In this document: piece by piece, positions 5,373 through 60,543 of the stretch
Layout of the letters: the number at the start of each line of letters is the position of its first letter
Position numbering within the stretch: the first letter of the stretch is position 1
DNA from: a virus
Taxonomy: Duplodnaviria; Caudoviricetes
Virus record (IMG/VR): IMGVR_UViG_3300008108_003798
Reading direction: 5' to 3' (one strand)
Length of the DNA stretch: 64,000 nucleotides
The notes under the pieces: model-generated
Seen by the model: the letters and a program-made list of their open reading frames with translations, nothing else
What the model was told of the DNA's origin: nothing
Database searches by the model: none
Made by a program: the position numbers and the translations under genes

Positions 5373-5386
5373 AATAGTATTTATGA

Positions 5387-5790
5387 GGAGATTCTGTTGC
5401 TACGCTCTCCCCGGGCGCCCTGTAGTTATGCTGCTAGAGCAAACTCAGAAGGTGCAAAATTTTCATTTGCAGTTGTCATTTTCTTCGCGGTAACGGCGCT
5501 TAGATCCCGGTGACTCCATCCTGCCTAGTTCGTTGATCGATCCTATGTCAGGCCCATCATAAAAATACTGCGATTAATCCTAATACTAAAACAAATATAA
5601 TACTTACATTACCCCAAAAGATCTGTTCTTGCTCAGTCGGTACCTGTTCATCACAGTACTTTTTCCAATCAAGATCTTCGCTTCTGTCTTTACTCTCATC
5701 GTAATATACATACATCATCAGTCTTCTTATGGTGGACCTGCCGGGTGCCGCCCCCGGGTCTCATCCGTGTTCAGTGAACTTCAACATCAC
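5387..5790 (-). ncRNA. ssrA: circularly permuted two-piece tmRNA (acceptor piece ~5730-5790, coding piece ~5387-5555)
   Basis: T-arm plus acceptor end ACCCGGGGGCGGCACCCGGCAGGTCCACCA lies upstream of the 5' end GGGCCTGACATAGGATCG. They form a 7-bp acceptor stem with G3:U70. Tag frame ANENFAPSEFALAA* at 5426-5470. Confidence 0.93.
5557..5718 (-). CDS. 53-aa single-TM protein encoded inside the tmRNA intervening segment
   Basis: MMYVYYDESKDRSEDLDWKKYCDEQVPTEQEQIFWGNVSIIFVLVLGLIAVFL*; fills 162 of the 174 nt of the intervening segment. Confidence 0.65.
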   Translation of the reverse strand: MMYVYYDESKDRSEDLDWKKYCDEQVPTEQEQIFWGNVSIIFVLVLGLIAVFL

Positions 5791-5794
5791 AAGT

Positions 5795-5802
5795 TATTTA
5801 TA
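5795..5802 (-). promoter_or_regulatory. T4-like late promoter motif TATAAATA upstream of ssrA
   Basis: Exact TATAAATA. Related (A/C)TAAATA motifs precede many minus-strand genes (near 4000, 8960, 10260, 21350, 22580, 39208, 41625, 47350). Confidence 0.6.
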
Positions 5803-5850
5803 TGCTAAAACAGTCAACCAGTCAAGAACTTTTTTGTGTATGCTTGTTCG

Positions 5851-8730
5851 TCATTTCGCTGCTGCAATACGACGTGAGAGAGTGGCTTGAGCGTTGTATT
5901 CCTCTTGCCATTTCGACGGGCCGTTGGAGGGCGACACCTGAACTGCCGTAACCTTGTATTCTGGACAGTTGGTAGCCCAATCGCTGAAATCGGTGGTGAT
6001 AACATTGGCTTGGGTGTCGGGGTGGTGGAAGGTGGTGTAGACCACGCCCGGATTGACTTTGTCGGTCAGTGTTGCTCGCAGGGTGGTTTCCCCGGCACGT
6101 GAGGCCAGACGCACCCAATCACCCTCTTTGACACCGCGCACTTCAGCATCGTGGGGATGGATTTCCAACAAATCTTCAGTATGCCATATACTGTTCGCTG
6201 TGCGGCGTGTTTGGGCGCCCACGTTGTACTGCGACAGGATACGGCCCGTGGTGAGTAGCAGCGGGAAACGCGGGCCAGTGCGTTCATCAGTGGCAATATA
6301 TTCGGTGTTGATGAACCGACCTTTGCCACGCACGAAGGCATCGACGTGCATCAAAGGCGTGCCTTCAGGCGCTTTTTCGTTGCAGGGCCACTGGACCGAG
6401 CCCATCTCTTCGATCTTGTCATAGCTGACACCGGCGAAGGACGGCGTGGTCATGGCAATCTCTTCCATGATCTGCACCGGGTGGGTGTAGTTCCAGTTGG
6501 CACCCATTGCGTTAGCGAACAACTGGGTGACTTCCCAATCGGCATAACCCGGCTTCGGAGCCATTACCTTGCGTACCATGTTGATGCGGCGCTCAGTGTT
6601 GGTAAAGGTGCCGTCCTTTTCCAAGAAACTCGATCCAGGGAAGAACACATGGGCGTAGTTTGCGGTCTCGTTCAGGAACAGGTCATGCACGATCACGCAT
6701 TCCATCGCTGCCAGACCTGCCGCAACGTGCTTGGTGTCCGGGTCAGATTGCAGGATGTCTTCGCCTTGGCAGTACAACCCCTTGAAGGTGCCCTCCACGG
6801 CGGCATCCAGCATGTTGGGGATACGCAGGCCCGGCTCATTATCGATCTTCACGCCCCAGAGGTTTTCATAGATTGCCCGTACATCGTCGTTCTTCACATG
6901 GCGGTAACCCGGCAGTTCGTGCGGGAAGGATCCCATGTCGCACGAGCCTTGCACGTTGTTTTGGCCACGCAGCGGGTTCACACCCACGCCCGGACGGCCA
7001 ATGTTGCCGGTCATCATCGCCAAGTTTGCAATGCCGATCACGGTGGTCGAGCCTTGCGAATGTTCCGTCACGCCCAGACCGTAGTAGATCGAGCCGTTGC
7101 CGCCGGTGGCATAGGTGCGGGCCGCGGCGCGGACATCCTCGGCCTTGACGCCGGTTAGGATTTCCACCGCTTCGGGCGAATGGTTCGGGCGGCTGACAAA
7201 CTCGGCATAGTCTTGGAATTCATCCCAGTCGCAGCGGGTGCGGATGAACTCTTCGTTGTAGAGCTTTTCGGTCACGATCACATGCGCCAGTGCGGTGACC
7301 ATGGCCACGTTGGTGCCTGGTGTAAGTGCAAGGTGATGTACTGCTTTGATATGCGGGCTTACTACAATTTCAGTGCGGCGAGGGTCAATGACTATCAGTT
7401 TCGCTCCTTTACGCAGGCGTTTTTTTAGACGGCTTGCAAAGACCGGGTGACCTACAGCAGGATTGGCTCCAATCACAATGGCCACATCTGTATATTCTAC
7501 CGAATCAAAGTCTTGCGTTCCAGCACTGGTACCAAGAGTCTGACCCAAGCCATAACCGGTGGGCGAATGGCAGACGCGGGCGCAGGTGTCAGTGTTGTTG
7601 TTCAGGAACACTGCTCGAGTCAGTTTCTGCACCAGATAGGTTTCTTCATTGGTGCAGCGCGACGAGGTGATCACACCCACGGACTTTTGCCCGTATTTGG
7701 AAATTATGCCCTTCATGCGGTTCGCGGCGAATTCCATCGCCTCGGCCCACGAGACTTCTTTCCACGGGTCGTTGATGCTGTCGCGGATCATCGGCGACAG
7801 GATGCGGTCTTGGTGGGAGGCATAGCCATAGGCAAAGCGGCCCTTGACGCAGGAATGGCCACGGTTGGCCTTGCCGTGCTTGTAAGGGACCATCCGCACC
7901 AGCTCGTCGCCGCGCAGTTCAGCTTTAAACTGGCAACCCACACCGCAATAGGCGCAGGTGGTGATGACAGAGCGTTCCGGTGTGCCGATTTCGATGATCG
8001 ACTTTTCCTGCAAGGTCGCTGTCGGGCAGGCTTGTACGCAGGCACCGCAGGACACGCAATCCGAGGCCAGCGCATCATCGGTTTTTGCACCGAACGACAC
8101 ACGGCTGTCAAAGCCTCGACCTTCGATGGTCAGCGCAAAGGTGCCCTGCACCTCTTCACAAGCCCGCACACAGCGCGAGCAGACGATGCATTTCGCCGGG
8201 TCATAGGTGAAGTAGGGGTTGCTCTCGTCCTTGGCTTTCCACTGCGGATTGGCCTCGCCAGAGTTGTTCTTGGCGCGGAAGTGGGTGTCGATCGCCTCAT
8301 AGCGCACATCGCGCAGGCCGACGGCACCAGCCATGTCCTGCAACTCGCAATCGCCATTGGCCGAGCAGGTCAGGCAGTCCAGCGGGTGGTCCGAGATATA
8401 CAACTCCATTACGCCGCGACGCAGTTGTTTCAGATTGCCGGTTTGGGTTTTCACCCGGATGCCGGGGGCAACGGGCGTGGTGCAAGAGGCGGGCGTGCCA
8501 TTGCGGCCTTCGATTTCCACAAGGCACAGGCGGCAGGAGCCAAAGGCCTCAAGGTTGTCGGTCGCGCACAGCTTTGGCACTGTGATGCCAATCTCGGCGG
8601 CGGCTCGCATTATGCTGGTGTCTTTGGGCACGGTCACATCGAACCCGTCGATGTTCAGGGTCACCGTAGCGGTCGAACGCACATAGGGCGTGCCAAAATC
8701 GCGGTCCGAGGGAATAATGAAGTCTTTCAT
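5851..8730 (-). CDS. fdsA: NAD-dependent formate dehydrogenase alpha subunit (Mo-bisPGD, Fe-S), 959 aa
   Basis: Start MKDFIIPSDRDFGTP; 2Fe-2S motif GSCRLCLVE..ASC; HPLDCLTC; CIVCSRCVRAC; CVSCGACVQACP; CAYCGVGC; active-site TCARVCHSP; PLRGQNNVQG. Confidence 0.93.
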   Translation of the reverse strand: MKDFIIPSDRDFGTPYVRSTATVTLNIDGFDVTVPKDTSIMRAAAEIGITVPKLCATDNLEAFGSCRLCLVEIEGRNGTPASCTTPVAPGIRVKTQTGNLKQLRRGVMELYISDHPLDCLTCSANGDCELQDMAGAVGLRDVRYEAIDTHFRAKNNSGEANPQWKAKDESNPYFTYDPAKCIVCSRCVRACEEVQGTFALTIEGRGFDSRVSFGAKTDDALASDCVSCGACVQACPTATLQEKSIIEIGTPERSVITTCAYCGVGCQFKAELRGDELVRMVPYKHGKANRGHSCVKGRFAYGYASHQDRILSPMIRDSINDPWKEVSWAEAMEFAANRMKGIISKYGQKSVGVITSSRCTNEETYLVQKLTRAVFLNNNTDTCARVCHSPTGYGLGQTLGTSAGTQDFDSVEYTDVAIVIGANPAVGHPVFASRLKKRLRKGAKLIVIDPRRTEIVVSPHIKAVHHLALTPGTNVAMVTALAHVIVTEKLYNEEFIRTRCDWDEFQDYAEFVSRPNHSPEAVEILTGVKAEDVRAAARTYATGGNGSIYYGLGVTEHSQGSTTVIGIANLAMMTGNIGRPGVGVNPLRGQNNVQGSCDMGSFPHELPGYRHVKNDDVRAIYENLWGVKIDNEPGLRIPNMLDAAVEGTFKGLYCQGEDILQSDPDTKHVAAGLAAMECVIVHDLFLNETANYAHVFFPGSSFLEKDGTFTNTERRINMVRKVMAPKPGYADWEVTQLFANAMGANWNYTHPVQIMEEIAMTTPSFAGVSYDKIEEMGSVQWPCNEKAPEGTPLMHVDAFVRGKGRFINTEYIATDERTGPRFPLLLTTGRILSQYNVGAQTRRTANSIWHTEDLLEIHPHDAEVRGVKEGDWVRLASRAGETTLRATLTDKVNPGVVYTTFHHPDTQANVITTDFSDWATNCPEYKVTAVQVSPSNGPSKWQEEYNAQATLSRRIAAAK

Positions 8731-8761
8731 TCGGCGGCGTCCATCTGGGCTATTTGAGTGC

Positions 8762-8953
8762 TTACCATGTTTTTTTGCTCCATGCTTCTTCGAACCCGTC
8801 TTCGTGAACAACGTTTTCATGATTACCCCAGATACGTTCAAAGTAACCGTTGTACACACTCATGATGTCTTTTTCACTCCATGCATCTGGAATCAGGTGT
8901 CCTTTGACAATCCAATAATATCTATTGGCTTCTTTGTGTTCGTATGCTGTCAC
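8762..8953 (-). CDS. hypothetical protein
   Basis: 63-aa ORF downstream of an ATAAATA motif. Confidence 0.65.
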   Translation of the reverse strand: MTAYEHKEANRYYWIVKGHLIPDAWSEKDIMSVYNGYFERIWGNHENVVHEDGFEEAWSKKTW

Positions 8954-28378: not shown

Positions 28379-31300
28379 TTATCTACGCTTAAAGTGATAG
28401 TCACCATCGGGGCCATAGTTTGTAAACTGTGCTACCAACTCAAATCCTATGCTGTGCATATATTCAAACACAGTTTCTCTTAGAGGCGCACCTTTATTAT
28501 ATTCAACGCTTTGCAGTTCTAGTATAACATGTTCTACAGTTTCTAACACTTCTGCTGCACCACGCAGTACATCGAGTTCTGCGCCCTGTACATCCATTTT
28601 TAACAGTTCAGGCTCGGGCAACTGTTTTAATCTATGCACTGCATCCAGTGTTACTGTTTGATAAGTGCGCTTGTGTGTTTCATTAAAGTAAAATGCACTG
28701 TTGGCATTGATGTCACTGTTTTCAATATAATAACTGTTGCCGCCAGGGTGCCAATCATTCTGATAGAACTCTACAGTTTTGCCACTCTCATCACTTAGTA
28801 CGCCAACATGATACATCATGTTGTTTTCTTTGTAAAGAAACTCACAACTGGGCATGGCTTCAAATGCTATAACAGTACTGTCTGGCCAAATCTGTTTTGC
28901 TTCGTTGGTCCAATGCAGTACACATGCACCTACATCGTAAATAGTTTTTGGAGTAAATCCTCCATCCTTTAATTGTTGCAAATAATCTACATGCGGTTTT
29001 GGTAACAATCTCTGCGAACTTAGATCTCTCAATCGTAGTTCTATACTGTTGTCTATAGCAGGTATTGAATCGTCTACGGTAAACTCGCCCTGACCTATGT
29101 GTCTACACTTAATAGCAGTGTCGGCGTAGATCTTAAATCCTTTCTTAAGTGCTTTGGCACAGAAGTCTACATCTTCACTAATAGTATTGGCGTGATTCAG
29201 TGCGCTGTGATAAACAAAGTGTGGATAGGGTATTGCTTGAAACACAGACTTTTTAATTAGTACACATCCAAAGCCACAGCCGTTAATGGGCACAAGTCCG
29301 CGGTCTTTGATTTTACCGTAAGGTATGTTGCTAACACCGCCTCGGTCATTGTTTTCGTATATTTCTAAAGTGTGCTGCCCTGGCTTGCGTTGTATGTACA
29401 AGCCGCTGACCATGTCAACGTCATGTGATAAAAATCTTCTCAGTGTGTCTCTTGGTAGTACAATGTCGCTGTCTACACTCAGTAGATAGTCATATCCTTT
29501 GACTACCCAGTCTGCAATTAGATTTCGTATTTGATCTATGTTATAACCATAGAAGTATTGAAACACTGTCTGATAGCCTTCTGGAACGTCCAGATCGTAT
29601 ATACTCTTGAAGGTTTCCGGTTCTATATACTTGGCTGTGGGTATCGCTATCAGGATCTTTTTTTTTTGTTGATTCATGTTGACAATCTCTCTTGCATTTT
29701 TGTTCTGTTCTGTGCTGTTTACTTTGTAATCATTAAGTGGATTAACGTCATTGTAGTTTACCATTATGTCTTGTACTGCCTGTACACTGTTAGGATCAGC
29801 CTGCTCTATCAATGCATAGAATACACTGCCATCGCCACCGGCGCCGTACCATTCGCCCTTGTTATCTTTGAACAGTGTGTCATCTACGCTGTCTATTAGA
29901 CTTTTTCTAAATGTTCTTAGATGTGTATAGGGCAGTATCCAGTTGAAATGGTGTGTTCTATATGCTCGTGTTTCTTTGATGTGCTGTGGATATTCCTGTG
30001 CTATCAAAGGAATGTTGTCTGCTATGCTCCAACAACTGCCATAGGTAAACTCTGCTCCGTCTAGGTATCGATCGTTGTAGTAGTGAAATATGCTGTTGTC
30101 ATTGGTTAAACTGTCATCGCCATCCAGTAGCATGACAATGCTGTCTGTTTCTAAACTTCTAACAGTTTCAATTTGATTTCTCACTGCACCGTAGTGACCA
30201 GTTCTCTTTACAATTTTGAACTTGCTTTGTATATGTTCAGGCAAAGATGCAATAGTCTGTTCTATTACAGCAACGCTTTGATCTGTAGAACAGTCATCAA
30301 TCAGCGTGTGTTCCCAGTTGTCATAGTCCTGTGCAGCAACACTGAGTATGTGATTTTCTAAGTAGTGTTCTGCATTATAGAAAGGACTTACAATCTCTAT
30401 CTTCTGCTGTGGATAACTGGCTGTGTGCGACATTTCACAAGGATTGGTATAGCGTCTTTTCCATATCTTGTGTATGCGTTGATTTATTTTTTGCACTGCT
30501 CTGTATTCATCCACAGGTAGATGCTGTTTTAATTTGTAATAGAAATGCTGTTTCCACTGTAGAGCCACTGTGTCCCAACCTACTACGTCTTTTATTATAT
30601 TACAATAGTTTTGTTTTTGTTGATGTAGATATCGGTCACGATATGCCTGTACAGTTGTAGCAACAAACTTTTCAATCTGTTGTGGCGAGTCGATATTAGG
30701 AAACAGATTGTTTGGCACTACAGAATAATCAATCACGTAGCAGGCTTCGGCTAGTGCTATTTCTTCCAGTGCTCCGAATCTGCAGGTTATCAACGGTGTG
30801 TTGTAGCAGAGGCTTTCCACTGAACTGATACCAAACGTTTCTGGAAACGCACTTGGATAGATCATAAAGCTAGATTTTTGAAGTATGTGTGCAATAGACT
30901 TTTGTGATATGACACCTGTAAACTCTATGTCCAACTGTTGGTTTACAGTATCGTTAGCCATAACATGCCAATCCTGTTCCTGTTGATCAGGAGCACTGCT
31001 TTTGCCAAATCTATAGTATCCGCCTATTATTTTTAGTTTAGCATTGGGCAACTGTTGTTTGACTCTGGGCCAAATTTCTTTAACCAAGGGTACCATGCCT
31101 TTGGTAACACTGGCGTTGTATACAAACAGATCAGGGTCTTTGCTTTTTAGGTCCGTCTGCGTATCGTAGATGTTAACGCCGTTTCTAGTTATAAAAACTT
31201 TGGGTTTAAGCACTTCGAAGTTGCGTCTTGCACCGTGATCACAGTTGGTAATATAGGTTAGATGCCAGTCGCTCAGTGTAAAGATGTCTGTGATTCTGTT

Positions 31301-31729
31301 TTCAGTTGCAAGTTTTTCTATCAGCGAATCTCCTAAACAGAATGTGTCGTGCATCCACAGTATTCTCATTTTGGCTTTGCTGAGTATTCTGTTGTAGAGA
31401 TCAATCTGTTGAAATGGTACTGCTCTGTTGTCTCTCATCTGTGGATAGTCTTTGGGATCGGTGAAAGGTATTACAGTTCTTGAACTGATTACAATATCAA
31501 ATTCCCAGTCTTTGGCTAGATCTCTTGTGGGTCTGTAGACAACGCCGTTGTATGTGCCAGGCTGTGTGTCTTCTGAATCACAGTTGTTGAATACTGTTAC
31601 ACCAAAACCCAGTTTGGCCAGTTGTTCGCTGACGAAAGTAACAGCACTTTCTGAGCCACCCAGTCCTTGTTTGTATACTGTTGTGCCATCATAGGGTATA
31701 CCAATGATGTCTATGATTGCTATCTTCAT
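28379..31729 (-). CDS. multi-domain glycosyltransferase (GT-B, two GT-A/GT2 domains, FkbM-type methyltransferase)
   Basis: GLGGSESAV, YPSAFPETFGISSVE; IVSPFYNA..DDCSTD..LDGDD; IAIPT..VDSD..GCGFGCVL..SEDVDFC; YDVGA..KMDVQGAELDVL. Confidence 0.85.
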   Translation of the reverse strand: MKIAIIDIIGIPYDGTTVYKQGLGGSESAVTFVSEQLAKLGFGVTVFNNCDSEDTQPGTYNGVVYRPTRDLAKDWEFDIVISSRTVIPFTDPKDYPQMRDNRAVPFQQIDLYNRILSKAKMRILWMHDTFCLGDSLIEKLATENRITDIFTLSDWHLTYITNCDHGARRNFEVLKPKVFITRNGVNIYDTQTDLKSKDPDLFVYNASVTKGMVPLVKEIWPRVKQQLPNAKLKIIGGYYRFGKSSAPDQQEQDWHVMANDTVNQQLDIEFTGVISQKSIAHILQKSSFMIYPSAFPETFGISSVESLCYNTPLITCRFGALEEIALAEACYVIDYSVVPNNLFPNIDSPQQIEKFVATTVQAYRDRYLHQQKQNYCNIIKDVVGWDTVALQWKQHFYYKLKQHLPVDEYRAVQKINQRIHKIWKRRYTNPCEMSHTASYPQQKIEIVSPFYNAEHYLENHILSVAAQDYDNWEHTLIDDCSTDQSVAVIEQTIASLPEHIQSKFKIVKRTGHYGAVRNQIETVRSLETDSIVMLLDGDDSLTNDNSIFHYYNDRYLDGAEFTYGSCWSIADNIPLIAQEYPQHIKETRAYRTHHFNWILPYTHLRTFRKSLIDSVDDTLFKDNKGEWYGAGGDGSVFYALIEQADPNSVQAVQDIMVNYNDVNPLNDYKVNSTEQNKNAREIVNMNQQKKKILIAIPTAKYIEPETFKSIYDLDVPEGYQTVFQYFYGYNIDQIRNLIADWVVKGYDYLLSVDSDIVLPRDTLRRFLSHDVDMVSGLYIQRKPGQHTLEIYENNDRGGVSNIPYGKIKDRGLVPINGCGFGCVLIKKSVFQAIPYPHFVYHSALNHANTISEDVDFCAKALKKGFKIYADTAIKCRHIGQGEFTVDDSIPAIDNSIELRLRDLSSQRLLPKPHVDYLQQLKDGGFTPKTIYDVGACVLHWTNEAKQIWPDSTVIAFEAMPSCEFLYKENNMMYHVGVLSDESGKTVEFYQNDWHPGGNSYYIENSDINANSAFYFNETHKRTYQTVTLDAVHRLKQLPEPELLKMDVQGAELDVLRGAAEVLETVEHVILELQSVEYNKGAPLRETVFEYMHSIGFELVAQFTNYGPDGDYHFKRR

Positions 31730-56136: not shown

Positions 56137-56212
56137 GCCCGGTTAGCCCAAAGGTAGAGGCAACAGACTTAAAATCTGTCAAGCGTCGGTTCGACCCCGA
56201 CACTGGGTACCA
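56137..56212 (+). tRNA. tRNA-Leu(UAA) with a short variable arm
   Basis: Cloverleaf; anticodon loop CTTAAAA; GGTTCGA; encoded CCA; TATAAATA at 56123-56130. Confidence 0.8.
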
Positions 56213-56218
56213 AACATT

Positions 56219-56295
56219 GGGGGATTAGCTCAATTGGTTAGAGCGTCGGACTCATAATCCGCAGGTTATCGGTTCAAGTCCGGTATCCCCTACCA
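56219..56295 (+). tRNA. tRNA with a CAU anticodon (elongator Met or Ile2)
   Basis: Anticodon loop CTCATAA; GGTTCAAGTCC; CCA. Confidence 0.9.
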
Positions 56296-56297
56296 TA

Positions 56298-56374
<77 letters not shown>

Positions 56375-56826: not shown

Positions 56827-57847
56827 AGGCAAAGAGGGAAGCAACATGTCTAACGTTAAATTTCTTGATGGTACTTTTAAACTGCGCGGCAAAGATGTAG
56901 ATATGTCGGGCATGGTTCTGCCCATGTTGGAAGGTTTTAAGGTTGGTGTTCGTGGCGGCTACGTGACTGTGGATGGTAAGGCAGTCCCTGGGTTTCCTGA
57001 TCGTGCGATTAAGGTGTATGTTGCAGGTGCAGGCTCGGTTGAAGAGACCGAAGACTCCGTGGCCGCCACTGCCAGAGAAGAATCCGACGAAGAAGTGATT
57101 GAACGACTGCGTGAACGCTTTGATATGCTGTCGGACATGACCAGAGCAGTCAAGCGCGGCGAAGTACGTGCTATGATCGTAAGTGGTCCTCCGGGCGTGG
57201 GCAAGAGCCACGGTGTTGAAGAAGTTCTTGATCGCTACAAGATGATGGAGACTCTTGGTGCTGCCAAGACTCACGAAGTTGTCAAAGGTGCTATGAGTGC
57301 GTTGGGTCTCTATGCCAAACTGTTCAAGATGAGTGCTCCAGGCAACATTGTTGTGTTTGACGACTGTGACAGTGTGTTCTCAGACGAACTGAGCCTGAAC
57401 ATCCTCAAGGCTGCACTGGACTCAAAGAAGACTCGTACTATCCACTGGAACACTGATAGCCGACTGTTGCGTCAAGAAGGTATTCCAGGTTCGTTCAAGT
57501 TTGAAGGTAGTGCTATCTTCATCACCAACTTGAAGTTCGACAAGGTCAGAGGTAAACTGCGTGAACACCTTGCAGCATTGGAATCACGCTGCCACTATAT
57601 CGACTTGACCATTGACACTGATCGTGAGAAGATGCTGCGTATCCAACAGATCGTTCGTGACGGCATGTTGGATGAATATGAGTTTGACGAAGAAATGCAA
57701 CAGGAGATTGTTGACTTCGTTGATGTGAATAAGAAGCGACTGCGCGAACTTTCCCTCAGGTCCGTGCTCAAGGTCGCCGACTTGGCAAAGGCCTTTCCTA
57801 CCAAATGGGAAGCCGTTGCCGAAAGCACTGTGATGCGTCGAGACTGA
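56827..57847 (+). CDS. AAA+ ATPase
   Basis: Walker A SGPPGVGKS; Walker B VVFDDCD; IFITN; ALESR. Confidence 0.85.
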
Positions 57848-57862
57848 CTCCGCATCACAGTA

Positions 57863-58002
57863 TGCTACACGGACCGCCCTCATCCGTGTAGCAGCCCAGG
57901 TAGACAGTGTGCCCTCGCTGGTCTACCGACTACGGAGAAGCGTCGCCCTCACGCCCTCTCCACAGTGCCCTAGCAGGATGCCCTCCCTGCTAGGGCTTTT
58001 TT
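57863..58002 (+). ncRNA. putative four-hairpin sRNA with GCCCUC loops, ending in an intrinsic terminator
   Basis: Stems TGCTACACGGA/TCCGTGTAGCA, GGTAGAC/GTCTACC, GGAGA..GCGT/ACGC..TCTCC, GCCCTAGCAGG/CCTGCTAGGGC+T6; every loop contains GCCCTC. Confidence 0.65.
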
Positions 58003-58086: not shown

Positions 58087-58386
58087 ATGCGTAAAGTTAC
58101 TGTCCTCCGCAAGTTCCAAACTGTTAAAGCAATGCGCGACTGTATTGCTGCTTATACTGCAAATGTTTTTGCAGACGAACTGCGCGAAGCTGCTGTTGCA
58201 ATGTATGCAAATGACATTGCGAGAGCTGTTGTTGCGCTTAACGAGTTTATTAGAACGAGTGACGCTGTTGCATTGCACAAGCGTATTATGTATTGGGACA
58301 CAGACGTGCGGGAAGCATTTGTTAGCGTGTTGCACTACATAGAGCAAGAGCAAATGGTGCCTGCTACGGAGTTTGCTGTGCTGTAA
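58087..58386 (+). CDS. early hypothetical protein (largely TC/CC-free)
   Basis: Promoter and RBS. Confidence 0.7.
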   Translation: MRKVTVLRKFQTVKAMRDCIAAYTANVFADELREAAVAMYANDIARAVVALNEFIRTSDAVALHKRIMYWDTDVREAFVSVLHYIEQEQMVPATEFAVL

Positions 58387-58721: not shown

Positions 58722-58901
58722 ATGATCAAGATTACTATTCCAGCAGTGTCGGTTCGCGAAGCAGTCGACATCCGCGACAGAATTCAGGGCGTGATCCTTG
58801 TGAAGGGTGAGACGGCTGTGATTGGCGATGGCGGTGTTGTGATCACCACAGACAATCCTGTGCGTGTGTGCCTTGAACTGCAAGGCGATGGCTTCATCTA
58901 A
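58722..58901 (+). CDS. early hypothetical protein (59 aa)
   Basis: Manual translation MIKITIPAVSVREAVDIRDRIQG... Confidence 0.65.
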   Translation: MIKITIPAVSVREAVDIRDRIQGVILVKGETAVIGDGGVVITTDNPVRVCLELQGDGFI

Positions 58902-59056
58902 CCCCGGCCAGGCGGGCTAAGTCATTGAAAACAATGGCAAATTTTTCTCGCACAAAAATGCTAAGTCGTTGTTTTTAAACGAATCATTTTGCTTGCAAAC
59001 TGTGCTGCATAGTGTATAACTGTACTTGTAAGCAACACAGCAGAGGGAAACACGCT

Positions 59057-59263
59057 ATGCAAAACACAGTTAAACTTGTGGACGTTGAGTATAACTATAA
59101 AAGCGAGCTTTGCGCTACGCTTACAAACAGCGTTAAAGCTGTGCGCTGCGAGGACGTGCTGTATTTGGACTTTGTAAGCTATGCTGCAATGTGTGCAGTA
59201 TACGAGGAGTGGTGCGAGCTTGCGGACGCGGGCGAAGAGGGTTATTTTTACGTAGCAGCGTAA
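59057..59263 (+). CDS. early hypothetical protein in the YC-free island
   Basis: GAGGGA RBS; MQNTVKLV... Confidence 0.7.
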   Translation: MQNTVKLVDVEYNYKSELCATLTNSVKAVRCEDVLYLDFVSYAAMCAVYEEWCELADAGEEGYFYVAA

Positions 59264-59361
59264 AAAAACTTGCAGCACACAGCACTTTTTAGTTGACAAG
59301 TGCTGTGTGCTGTGCTATACATAACTTGTAAGCAACACAGCACAGCAGAGGGAAACACGCT

Positions 59362-59649
59362 ATGCAAAACACAGTAGCAAATACAGCAAATACTAATTAC
59401 GTTTTTGTAATGCTTGATGACGCTACAAACGCAATTGTACTGCGTATTAATAAAACTGTTGACGTTTTTTGTAATAGTGCAAACGACATAATTGCTGCAT
59501 TTAAACAATATAATATTACGGACTGCGACACTATTATGTGCAGCAGTGACGTGGATTTTGCTACGGAGTTTGACTATGCGTACGACAGTGCAGTACACGA
59601 CATGCTTGACGAAGCTTTTGACGCACTAAATTTTAAACAATACGTTTAA
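59362..59649 (+). CDS. early hypothetical protein in the YC-free island
   Basis: GAGGGA RBS; MQNTVANT... Confidence 0.7.
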   Translation: MQNTVANTANTNYVFVMLDDATNAIVLRINKTVDVFCNSANDIIAAFKQYNITDCDTIMCSSDVDFATEFDYAYDSAVHDMLDEAFDALNFKQYV

Positions 59650-59739
59650 AAAAACAGCAGCACACAGCACTTTTTACTTGACGAGTGCTGTGTGCTGTGC
59701 TATAACTTACACACGGGCAACACACGAGAGGGACTGCAC

Positions 59740-59931
59740 ATGACACGCGAAGAACTGTTTGCTAAAATTGCTGCAATTGCTGCTGACGCATACGACAGCA
59801 CGGATGCTGACGAAGTGCAAAGCTGGGATGCATACGAAGCAGCGAAACAGATTGTTATTGCAATGCAGACGGTTGGCTACGACATAACATATATGTTGGA
59901 GCAAATTGAGGAAGACGCTGACGAAGCGTAA
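59740..59931 (+). CDS. early hypothetical protein in the YC-free island
   Basis: GAGGGA RBS; MTREELFA... Confidence 0.7.
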   Translation: MTREELFAKIAAIAADAYDSTDADEVQSWDAYEAAKQIVIAMQTVGYDITYMLEQIEEDADEA

Positions 59932-60027
59932 CACAAAAAAAACTTGCAGCGCACAGCACTTTTTACTTGACGAGTGCTGTGTGCTGTGCTATACATAACT
60001 TGTAAGCAACGCAAGAGGGAACACGCT

Positions 60028-60315
60028 ATGCACACAGTAATTGCAGAATTTTTGCAGTGTTTTGCAGCATATATGCAGCATGTAGCCGCGCTAGCGGACG
60101 ACACGGAACTCGAGCCCGCGGATGCGGAAGACGCTGTTAAAATTGCACAGCAACTTCCTTTGCTGTATGCAGTTGTTTACAGTCCCCGTGCAGCACAATG
60201 CGCTGCGCTTGATGCGCTAGAAGTCGACTGCATTAACATGCTCGACACCAACGTGCGCGATTTCTTTGCTAACCTGTATACTGTTAACGCACTGTTCCGC
60301 AGCAACGAGTTGTAA
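60028..60315 (+). CDS. early hypothetical protein
   Basis: GAGGGA RBS; MHTVIAEF... Confidence 0.7.
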   Translation: MHTVIAEFLQCFAAYMQHVAALADDTELEPADAEDAVKIAQQLPLLYAVVYSPRAAQCAALDALEVDCINMLDTNVRDFFANLYTVNALFRSNEL

Positions 60316-60402
60316 TAAAAACTTGCAGCACACAGCACTTTTTACTTGACGAGTGCTGTGTGCTGTGCTATACATATTGCATAGGGCAAACAGGAGGGCA
60401 AG

Positions 60403-60543
60403 ATGAAGATTCAAATTAAAGCCGAAGACATCCAGCGCCGCGATCCGGTTGCTCGTGCATTGGCAGACAGTCGGTTCCAGCCTCGCACTGTGCGTGACAG
60501 AACCAAATACACCCGCAAACAGAAACACCGCAAAGCCTACTAA
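60403..60543 (+). CDS. small basic ArfA-like protein (46 aa)
   Basis: DPVARALADSRFQPRTVRDRTKYTRKQKH resembles the ArfA core. Confidence 0.55.
   Translation: MKIQIKAEDIQRRDPVARALADSRFQPRTVRDRTKYTRKQKHRKAY

Follow-up and report, generated by a model that had tools for sequence, protein, structure and literature searches.

The window analyzed here is a 64,000 nt stretch of DNA from a virus of the Caudoviricetes (IMG/VR record IMGVR_UViG_3300008108_003798). It has an island at positions 58986–60085 in which the plus strand is entirely devoid of the dinucleotides TC and CC. These two are designated YC, and GA and GG are designated GR; a 5'-YC-3' on the coding strand equals a 5'-GR-3' on the template strand. 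The island is 1100 nt and has 0 YC where 95 are expected from base composition (Poisson probability of zero, ~5e-42). The exclusion is selected and shows a two-layer grammar. The promoter duplex at the head of the island is free of these dinucleotides on both strands, and beyond it only the template strand is without 5'-GR. The YC/GR step must be read, with single-site consequences, by some activity, be it a DNA mark or a cell factor.

The YC-free run is flanked by YCs at 58984/5 and 60085/6. The first-pass annotation of this DNA had described the same tract and had put the number expected by chance, by eye, at about 100; the recount agrees on both points. The island consists of 346 A, 212 C, 261 G and 281 T. 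All 212 cytosines are preceded by a purine, A in 108 cases and G in 104, also as annotated. There are 62 GA and 30 GG on the plus strand, which shows that the YC effect is strand-specific, and YC-free runs on the minus strand reach at most 137 nt anywhere in the window. Cytosine content is 19% compared with 22–25% nearby, and at this level a low C content, the trivial cause that the annotation had raised, is ruled out. The G+C content is 42–44% in the island and 50% in the flanks. The dinucleotides AC and GC are present at 1.6 and 2.1 times expectation, i.e., C has been moved behind purines and has not been lost.

The depletion is independent of reading frame and spans promoters, ribosome binding sites and open reading frames (ORFs). 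As had been noted from the sequence, three complete genes with their promoters and ribosome binding sites lie inside the tract (genes A, B and C, Table 1). In all, the island comprises four promoter/hairpin units, these three genes and the initial 58 nt of gene D, the fourth. CCN and TCN codons are impossible where YC is absent, and proteins A–C are therefore without Pro and have Ser encoded by AGY only, as previously read. When 95 ORFs in the window were scanned, the ratio of observed to expected coding-strand YC was below 0.35 in the three island genes only; the median is 0.84. Neighboring early genes have normal YC by sliding windows and by per-gene counts, e.g., 18 observed and 18.2 expected at positions 58722–58901. 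Two smaller YC-free patches seen earlier are real and are recounted as 58117–58360 (244 nt, within gene Z, Table 1) and 60298–60411 (114 nt).

The tract is not an assembly artefact. The island is found in 17 public runs from at least 12 studies, mostly from lakes and fresh water, with 94–97% of sampled words present. An independent DNA run tiles the island at ≥99%, and contig L033 is identical across it. An artefact, or a recently imported or synthetic cassette, has only the oddity of the sequence and its lower G+C content to recommend it, and the runs, the independent contigs and the homologues in many metagenomes that share the trait reduce its probability to almost nothing.

The window is syntenic with positions 212–268 kb of G001, a 330-kb IMG/VR contig, with nt identities of 70–88%. 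G001 is the only relative retrieved by IMG/VR pattern and protein scans. Long YC-free runs in G001 are confined genome-wide to one 3-kb locus, and runs of 12 control dinucleotide classes never exceed ~150 nt there. There are 33 homologues of gene B, with 62–97% identity, and 36 of gene C, all from metagenomes. In all lineages but one among the loci retrieved, a coding-strand YC-free tract of 364–1102 nt surrounds gene B, which answers in the affirmative the question whether homologues also lack YC. Lineages L036–L038 have B proteins of 37–41% identity and YC-free tracts of 667–966 nt. The homologue of gene A in L012–L014 is likewise YC-free. The cassette order varies among the relatives, and the YC-free trait moves with the cassettes. 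The annotation had also considered a cassette imported from another lineage as the cause. Homologous cassettes down to 37% protein identity keep the trait and substitutions continue to accumulate in them without creating YC, which speaks against import.

The exceptional lineage is L042/L043, in which the rule is relaxed. There are 7 YC in gene B and 12 in the next gene, with 27 expected in each (L042 239–821). This lineage is a natural control, and its host or gene content could reveal the reader. Two lineages conserve one YC in gene B, at +38 or +47, and neighboring genes show graded YC depletion. In partly depleted genes, clustering of residual YCs is significant only for gene Z, L002 3526–3873 and L012 653–1081; being so limited, it does not separate the models discussed below.

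The rule follows the direction of transcription, in that a divergent gene in the relatives is YC-free on its own coding strand. Adjoining such a gene is a stretch of 677 nt (L002 5913–6603, equivalent to G001 210775–211451) that has no TC, CC, GA or GG on either strand. It includes a conserved 120-codon gene with no Shine-Dalgarno sequence. The absence of all four dinucleotides means that its product has no Asp, Glu, Gly or Pro. The pattern of third-position substitutions indicates that it is a real gene.

Codon usage distinguishes selection from mutation. In this comparison, 25 YC-free genes were set against 105 normal early genes that belong to the same phages. Codons of the NYC type are replaced by NYA, with GCA at.62 vs.39 in normal genes, ACA at.56 vs.25 and GTA at.43 vs.21. 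NYT codons are not raised (GCT.27 vs.35, ACT.29 vs.38). A C>T process would enrich NYT, and the flat or lower NYT shares argue against C>T decay. A ban on YC also penalizes T-ending codons, because the next codon is then restricted. When genes A, B and C are recoded synonymously with normal codon usage, each acquires 9–17 YC, with a minimum of 3. Such recoding also gives the level of coding-strand GR that is observed inside A–C; GR is not depleted there. The proteins themselves are affected: dipeptides that force a YC ([NDYHCFS] followed by [HQP]) number 0 in the island genes with 49 expected, and 312 in normal genes with 273 expected. The YC-free rule has rewritten the proteins to obey it. 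In homologues of gene B, 0–1 YC are observed compared with 3–20 when substitutions are randomized over sites of the same base. This randomization was used because a parsimony count of YC-creating substitutions is misleading on long branches. These comparisons show that selection, and not C>T decay, maintains the exclusion.

Mutational decay would have eroded YC without selection by C>T changes at dipyrimidines, through UV or an APOBEC-like deaminase, and UV-type erosion was the second cause proposed by the annotation. The TC/CC context does fit the established signatures of these processes, and YT dinucleotides are slightly in excess (155 vs 126 expected). However, the cytosines of the island have been kept, all behind purines, and NYA codons have doubled with no rise in NYT. 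The ORFs are intact and the proteins conserved, the trait survives 50% nucleotide divergence without the return of YC, and the edges are sharp against normal genes under the same promoters. Decay is extremely unlikely.

The first promoter (Table 1) obeys a stricter rule than the genes. From the -35 hexamer to the start codon it is YC-free in 12/12 lineages, and in 5/12 the last upstream YC abuts the -35 hexamer. For comparison, 9 of 10 spacers of ordinary early promoters in the window have a YC. GR is also avoided here. Between -70 and -16 of the first promoters, G followed by a purine is found in 3/111 cases, compared with 155/295 in ordinary TTGACR promoters. A GR-free run of 59–109 nt that ends at the Shine-Dalgarno sequence is present in 10/12 lineages. 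The -35 hexamer is TTGCAA, TTTACA or TTGCAT and not TTGACA, i.e., GA is avoided even within the hexamer. In the window, the plus-strand run without both YC and GR extends from 58985 to 59043. There are seven stretches of at least 45 nt in the window without all four dinucleotides, and all are inside the island. Upstream of the -35 hexamer the two strands differ: GR is absent from the plus strand from about -100 onward, YC from the -35 hexamer only. The promoter spacer and the upstream DNA are outside the RNA that begins at the predicted start, so a reader that acts on RNA only does not account for them.

The first cause that the annotation had proposed, escape from an activity that targets YC in mRNA or in the exposed non-template strand, is upheld in kind, since the depletion is real, frame-independent and selected. 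Its target on mRNA or the non-template strand is not established; the promoter spacer and the GA/GG exclusion are better fitted by a reading of duplex and template DNA.

One RNA-level explanation is that the transcripts are proof against Rho. With no 5'-YC in the mRNA Rho could not load, and the operon would be transcribed to its end even if translation lags. The primary binding clefts of Rho bind 5'-YC, with up to six UC/CC per hexamer (PMC12360218, PMC13323073), and Rho avoidance shapes the coding-strand composition in Bacillus subtilis (PMC13323073). The dinucleotide specificity matches the island exactly, and on the RNA-like strand. The host clade inferred for the phage has a canonical Rho: three freshwater Paracoccaceae genomes have one each. 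It can be aligned with E. coli Rho over the full length (E 1e-191) and has kept the stretches GFGFLRS, DDIYV and ERYF, which we take to hold the YC-binding residues of E. coli Rho. The island transcripts are predicted to be more structured than shuffled sequences (z -2.8). Some lineages tolerate single residual YCs and depletion in neighboring genes is graded, both of which fit Rho. YC-free recoding also forces the use of codons rarely found in high-GC hosts, and early phage tRNA genes are nearby.

Against this, the avoidance of Rho known so far is a statistical bias that falls short of a complete ban. Rho cannot be loaded by a few YC, but Pro and all of the YC-forcing dipeptides have been removed. 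Translated ORFs and untranslated stretches of 30–95 nt are poor loading sites. Rho also leaves unexplained the absence of YC from the first-promoter spacer (the transcription starts being predicted ones) and of GA/GG from that promoter and from a gene of the relatives. The trait is present in only 3–5 of ~400 genes. A search of the relative for Psu gave no match, but control genomes gave none either, and this says nothing on its absence. Rho evasion is judged unlikely.

The host assignment is based on two loci. A gene for an FdsA-type formate dehydrogenase subunit (window 5851–8859, minus strand, GC 57%) encodes a protein with 97% identity to its counterpart in a freshwater Paracoccaceae bacterium and 95% to that in a Tabrizicola metagenome-assembled genome, and it looks like a very recent host-derived gene. 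A permuted two-piece tmRNA of the alphaproteobacterial type is recognized by Rfam at positions 5382–5829 of the minus strand (95.6 bits). Because of the 97% identity of FdsA and this tmRNA, we infer that the host is probably a freshwater member of the Paracoccaceae. The tRNA genes are in the early region (56137–56374, plus strand). They are Leu-UAA, a CAU tRNA (Met or Ile2) and Arg-UCU, and they decode UUA, AUA and AGA, which a high-GC host seldom uses. The use of UUA and AUA is ~2–6 times higher in YC-free genes than in normal early genes.

A second RNA-level explanation is a toxin, i.e., a single-strand endoribonuclease or RNA modifier acting at YC, either as a host defense or as part of phage shut-off. 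Messages free of targets would stay translatable. An enzyme for which one hit suffices explains an absolute, frame-independent ban over untranslated regions and ORFs. The anti-phage protein CmdT, which ADP-ribosylates GA on single-stranded mRNA (PMC11618068), is a precedent for dinucleotide specificity, and an enzyme of its kind would also give a reason for the GA/GG-free gene of the relatives. The 16-bp hairpins after each gene could shield 3' ends, and the small acidic proteins would suit inhibitor roles. That genes A–C are anti-defense genes is a guess.

Several points disfavor a toxin. The spacer and the GA/GG exclusion of the first promoter are outside the RNA made from that promoter. The YC at +38 or +47 of gene B is conserved in two lineages, and under a one-hit rule the YC clusters at both ends of gene Z make its clean core pointless. 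We know of no YC-specific RNase or ADP-ribosyltransferase. A literature search for YC-specific enzymes found only CmdT, specific for GA, and context-free enzymes of the pierisin family that modify C and G. A toxin of this kind is judged as unlikely as Rho evasion.

It is also conceivable that very strong transcription displaces the non-template strand, and that the island protects this strand from a host enzyme that attacks YC in single-stranded DNA, such as a deaminase, a nuclease or a DarT-like ADP-ribosyltransferase. In favor of this, it is the non-template strand that is clean in every case, and the promoters are near-consensus with an extended -10. But about 30 neighboring cassettes that are equally strong are undepleted, the promoter spacer and the region from -100 to -36 are not melted, and avoidance of GA/GG in the promoter is unexplained. 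No CDA-fold deaminase was found in G001. This explanation is very improbable.

The reading favored here, with a probability of roughly 0.35, is a rule at the level of DNA that keeps a mark directed to the GR/YC step off both the promoter duplex and the template strand. An activity with this specificity that acts genome-wide without being lethal is most plausibly a base modification. The phage would modify the G of GA and GG across its own genome; insertion of 7-deazaguanine by DpdA-type enzymes is the closest precedent. A host enzyme that marks or damages the GR/YC step would be a less likely alternative. Unaided host RNA polymerase would need an unmarked promoter duplex to bind and an unmarked template strand to read, and the island operon would be the part of an incoming, marked genome that can be transcribed first. 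The undepleted GR on the coding strand of A–C is expected if only the template strand matters there. We infer the modification itself, its targeting to GR, its hindrance of host polymerase and the place of genes A–C as a first wave. Most of the probability given to this reading belongs to a guanine modification of the phage's own. More tentative than the reading as a whole is the further step that the modification is a built-in temporal switch, with one unmarked operon whose products, A–C, are a first wave that unlocks the rest.

DpdA is known to modify the G of GA in phage iggy (PMC10484667) and GA and GGC in phage CAjan (PMC7544227). Another phage enzyme acts at the GC dinucleotide, and modifications in the major groove can inhibit bacterial RNA polymerase (PMC12783734). 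In G001, genes for FolE (E 5e-40), a QueE-like radical SAM protein (phrog_2076, E 2.5e-51), a phosphoribosyltransferase and MetK are grouped together. The QueE-like protein has an NCBIfam match at its N-terminal end only, and a QueC-like match is weak (22.9 bits only).

A number of results weigh against a DNA mark. QueD was not recognized in G001 and QueC is only weakly indicated. In this 93%-complete genome the Pfam guanine transglycosylase model finds nothing even at E 10, a result that does not extend to the remote homologue DpdA3, which was not searched. DUF6610 (DpdA4) has no match in G001, the DpdA of phage Moby has none by tblastn or phmmer, and no C5 or N4/N6 DNA methyltransferase was found. 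The FolE, QueE-like and phosphoribosyltransferase genes are located in G001, outside the region of the window, which has no such gene. A cyanophage has the same set of three without DpdA, and PA5oct has a QueE-like gene in the same synteny with no adjacent FolE; these two cases show that FolE/QueE genes need not mean a context-specific DNA modification. About 30 other early cassettes with consensus sigma-70 promoters have GR and YC on both strands, and under the model these would have to be active later or be insensitive to the mark. RNA polymerase is not known to be blocked by 7-deazaguanines. The strand difference upstream of the -35 hexamer is not predicted by the model. A Pfam scan of the 29 larger ORFs in the window shows no DNA-modification enzyme. 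No reading of the exclusion is placed above 0.35, and the probability left over by all of them belongs to readers not yet imagined.

The gene order at 27–35 kb of G001 (L016 5959–15143) is epimerase, phosphoribosyltransferase, HIT-like protein, a 260-aa ORF, FolE, a 96-aa ORF, QueE-like radical SAM protein, MetK and a 5'-3' exonuclease. The 260-aa ORF beside FolE was considered as a transglycosylase and rejected; it has a PD-(D/E)XK-like nuclease motif instead. The cluster may represent a deazapurine pathway paired with a nuclease.

The source of the window is an uncultured freshwater giant phage, whose AAA ATPase resembles most closely the ATPases of PA5oct-type jumbo phages. The plus strand between 54 and 63 kb has more than 14 near-identical cassettes of the sigma-70 type. 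Each consists of GGTTGACA, a 17-nt spacer, TGCTATACA, a leader with TAGGGCAAC, a Shine-Dalgarno sequence and a small ORF. A sigma-70 scanner misses the TATACA and TATAAC promoters of the phage. The island and the features around it are listed in Table 1. The 3' edge of the island, at 60085, is inside gene D, where YC resumes.

Table 1. Features in and around the YC-free island (positions in the window)
Feature	Position	Strand	Properties
Gene Z, 99 aa, partly recoded; YC-free core 58117–58360	58087–58386	+	7 YC, all at the two ends, vs 27 expected; clustering P<0.001
Weak terminator-like hairpin with T-run, just 5' of island; first GCTAAGTC copy	58921–58950	+	-7.2 kcal/mol, z -1.9
Conserved upstream element GCTAAGTC..TTGTTTTTAAAC, A/T-rich	58960–58992	+	33 nt before -35 in most lineages
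First promoter (predicted): -35 TTGCAA 58993–58998, 16-nt spacer, -10 TATAAC 59015–59020	58993–59020	+	Consensus and homology to other early promoters; plus strand without YC or GR, 58986–59042
Shine-Dalgarno GAGGG of gene A; first GR past the promoter	59043–59047	+	
Gene A, 68 aa, acidic, no Pro	59057–59263	+	YC 0 vs 15.7 expected
16-bp hairpin around gene B promoter -35 (TTGACA 59293–59298); -10 TATACA 59316–59321	59272–59313	+	-28.9 kcal/mol, z -4.4; repeat families D3/I1
Gene B, 95 aa, core island member in all relatives	59362–59649	+	YC 0 vs 23.8 expected
Hairpin around gene C promoter -35 (TTGACG 59678–59683); -10 TATAAC 59701–59706	59657–59698	+	-28.1 kcal/mol, z -5.9
Gene C, 63 aa, very acidic	59740–59931	+	YC 0 vs 14.2 expected; 36 homologues
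Hairpin around gene D promoter -35 (TTGACG 59967–59972); -10 TATACA 59990–59995	59946–59987	+	-28.9 kcal/mol, z -5.3; one arm G-U pair
Gene D, 95 aa, has Pro; first 58 nt YC-free	60028–60315	+	Whole gene 17 YC observed, 37 expected
Fourth hairpin/promoter copy, ahead of a 46-aa DUF7230-type gene (60403–60543); within YC-free patch 60298–60411	60325–60366	+	

The upstream element is at the same spacing in the window and in L034, L036, L044, L035, L012 and L037. There are two copies of GCTAAGTC with its A/T-rich stretch upstream of the first promoter (58915–58992), in the same place in L012, L034–L037 and L044. The element may act as an UP element or bind a factor.

The internal promoters have their -35 hexamer in the loop of a hairpin. 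An A-run ahead of each hairpin makes it a potential intrinsic terminator for transcription of the opposite strand. The arms of the inter-cassette hairpins co-vary between lineages (window 59947–59986 compared with L042 520–565), and one copy in the window has a G-U pair. The co-variation and the G-U pair favor a role of the hairpin as RNA, in read-through transcripts. Public runs labeled as RNA yield only scattered contigs of 150–230 nt over the region. One contig from a riverine metatranscriptome covers positions 57800–57979, just past the AAA ATPase gene; this is a weak signal (single contig, depth 3).

The homologue of gene Z in L002 (66% identity) encodes the same 5' residues, TVLRKF, without YC. 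Homology of gene D to a YC-free gene of L041 was considered and not confirmed. Nearly all YC-free genes, from at least 8 unrelated protein families, begin with Met-Gln-(Asn/Thr/Ile)-Thr (window, L002, L008, L012, L035–L038 and L041). The shared start suggests a common module of promoter, leader and first codons that was spread by recombination.

The island DNA has no match among 50,697 phage records. Nine small proteins gave nothing informative against PHROGs, and proteins A, B and C belong to no Pfam or PHROG family. An AlphaFold model of protein B (pLDDT 71) has no fold match in PDB or BFVD at E≤0.001. Elsewhere in the window, a gene on the minus strand (28379–31729) encodes a 1116-aa protein with GT1 and GT2 glycosyltransferase domains and an FkbM methyltransferase domain; its substrate may be a virion glycan or DNA.

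A selected, two-layer exclusion of dinucleotides was not found described in the literature searched. The rule has persisted through the divergence of a clade of giant freshwater phages. If the mark is the phage's own modification, this would be the first genome found to encode modification-free zones that program the earliest transcription, and modification motifs could be predicted from the sequence signature alone. Should Rho or an RNA toxin be the reader, the island would represent a new cis-acting counter-measure. In every case it flags which of hundreds of orphan early genes matter first.

The island can be compared with several known systems. Avoidance of restriction sites or protospacer adjacent motifs concerns words of 4–8 bp and is partial and genome-wide; the EcoP15I sites of T7 are strand-biased. 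The likeness is that a short recognition word has been removed from phage DNA and, as T7 shows, that the orientation of a site can matter, but here a degenerate dinucleotide is at zero in one operon. The footprints of APOBEC3 in animal DNA viruses are a partial depletion of TC with C>T products. They share the TC/CC context and the strand asymmetry, but in the island NYT does not rise and C is conserved. The promoter-early stem-loop (PeSL) cassettes of T4-type phages, reportedly described by Arbiol et al. in 2010, are similar in that each small early gene has its own sigma-70 promoter in a stem-loop and the order of cassettes is shuffled between relatives. They account for the architecture and the shuffling, but not for the dinucleotide ban.

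Messages free of a target motif are a further parallel. mRNAs without ACA are immune to MazF, and for CmdT the recognition of GA on single-stranded RNA is likewise that of a dinucleotide. As would be needed for such immunity, every YC has been removed from the island mRNA, but the rule is not confined to RNA. The rut sites of Rho and the purine bias linked to them (PMC12360218, PMC13323073) involve the same dinucleotide on the same RNA-like strand, and the host clade has Rho, but known avoidance is graded and genome-wide; here it is total, affects 3–5 genes and extends into untranscribed promoter DNA. For 7-deazaguanine modification by DpdA, the differences are that no DpdA was detected in the relative and that the modified base and its effect on polymerase are assumed here. 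We know of no published phage that has purged its own modification motif from an operon. The likeness is that the target would be G followed by a purine, the very step that is absent from the template strand of the island and from both strands of its first promoter, and that the relative has FolE and QueE-like genes.

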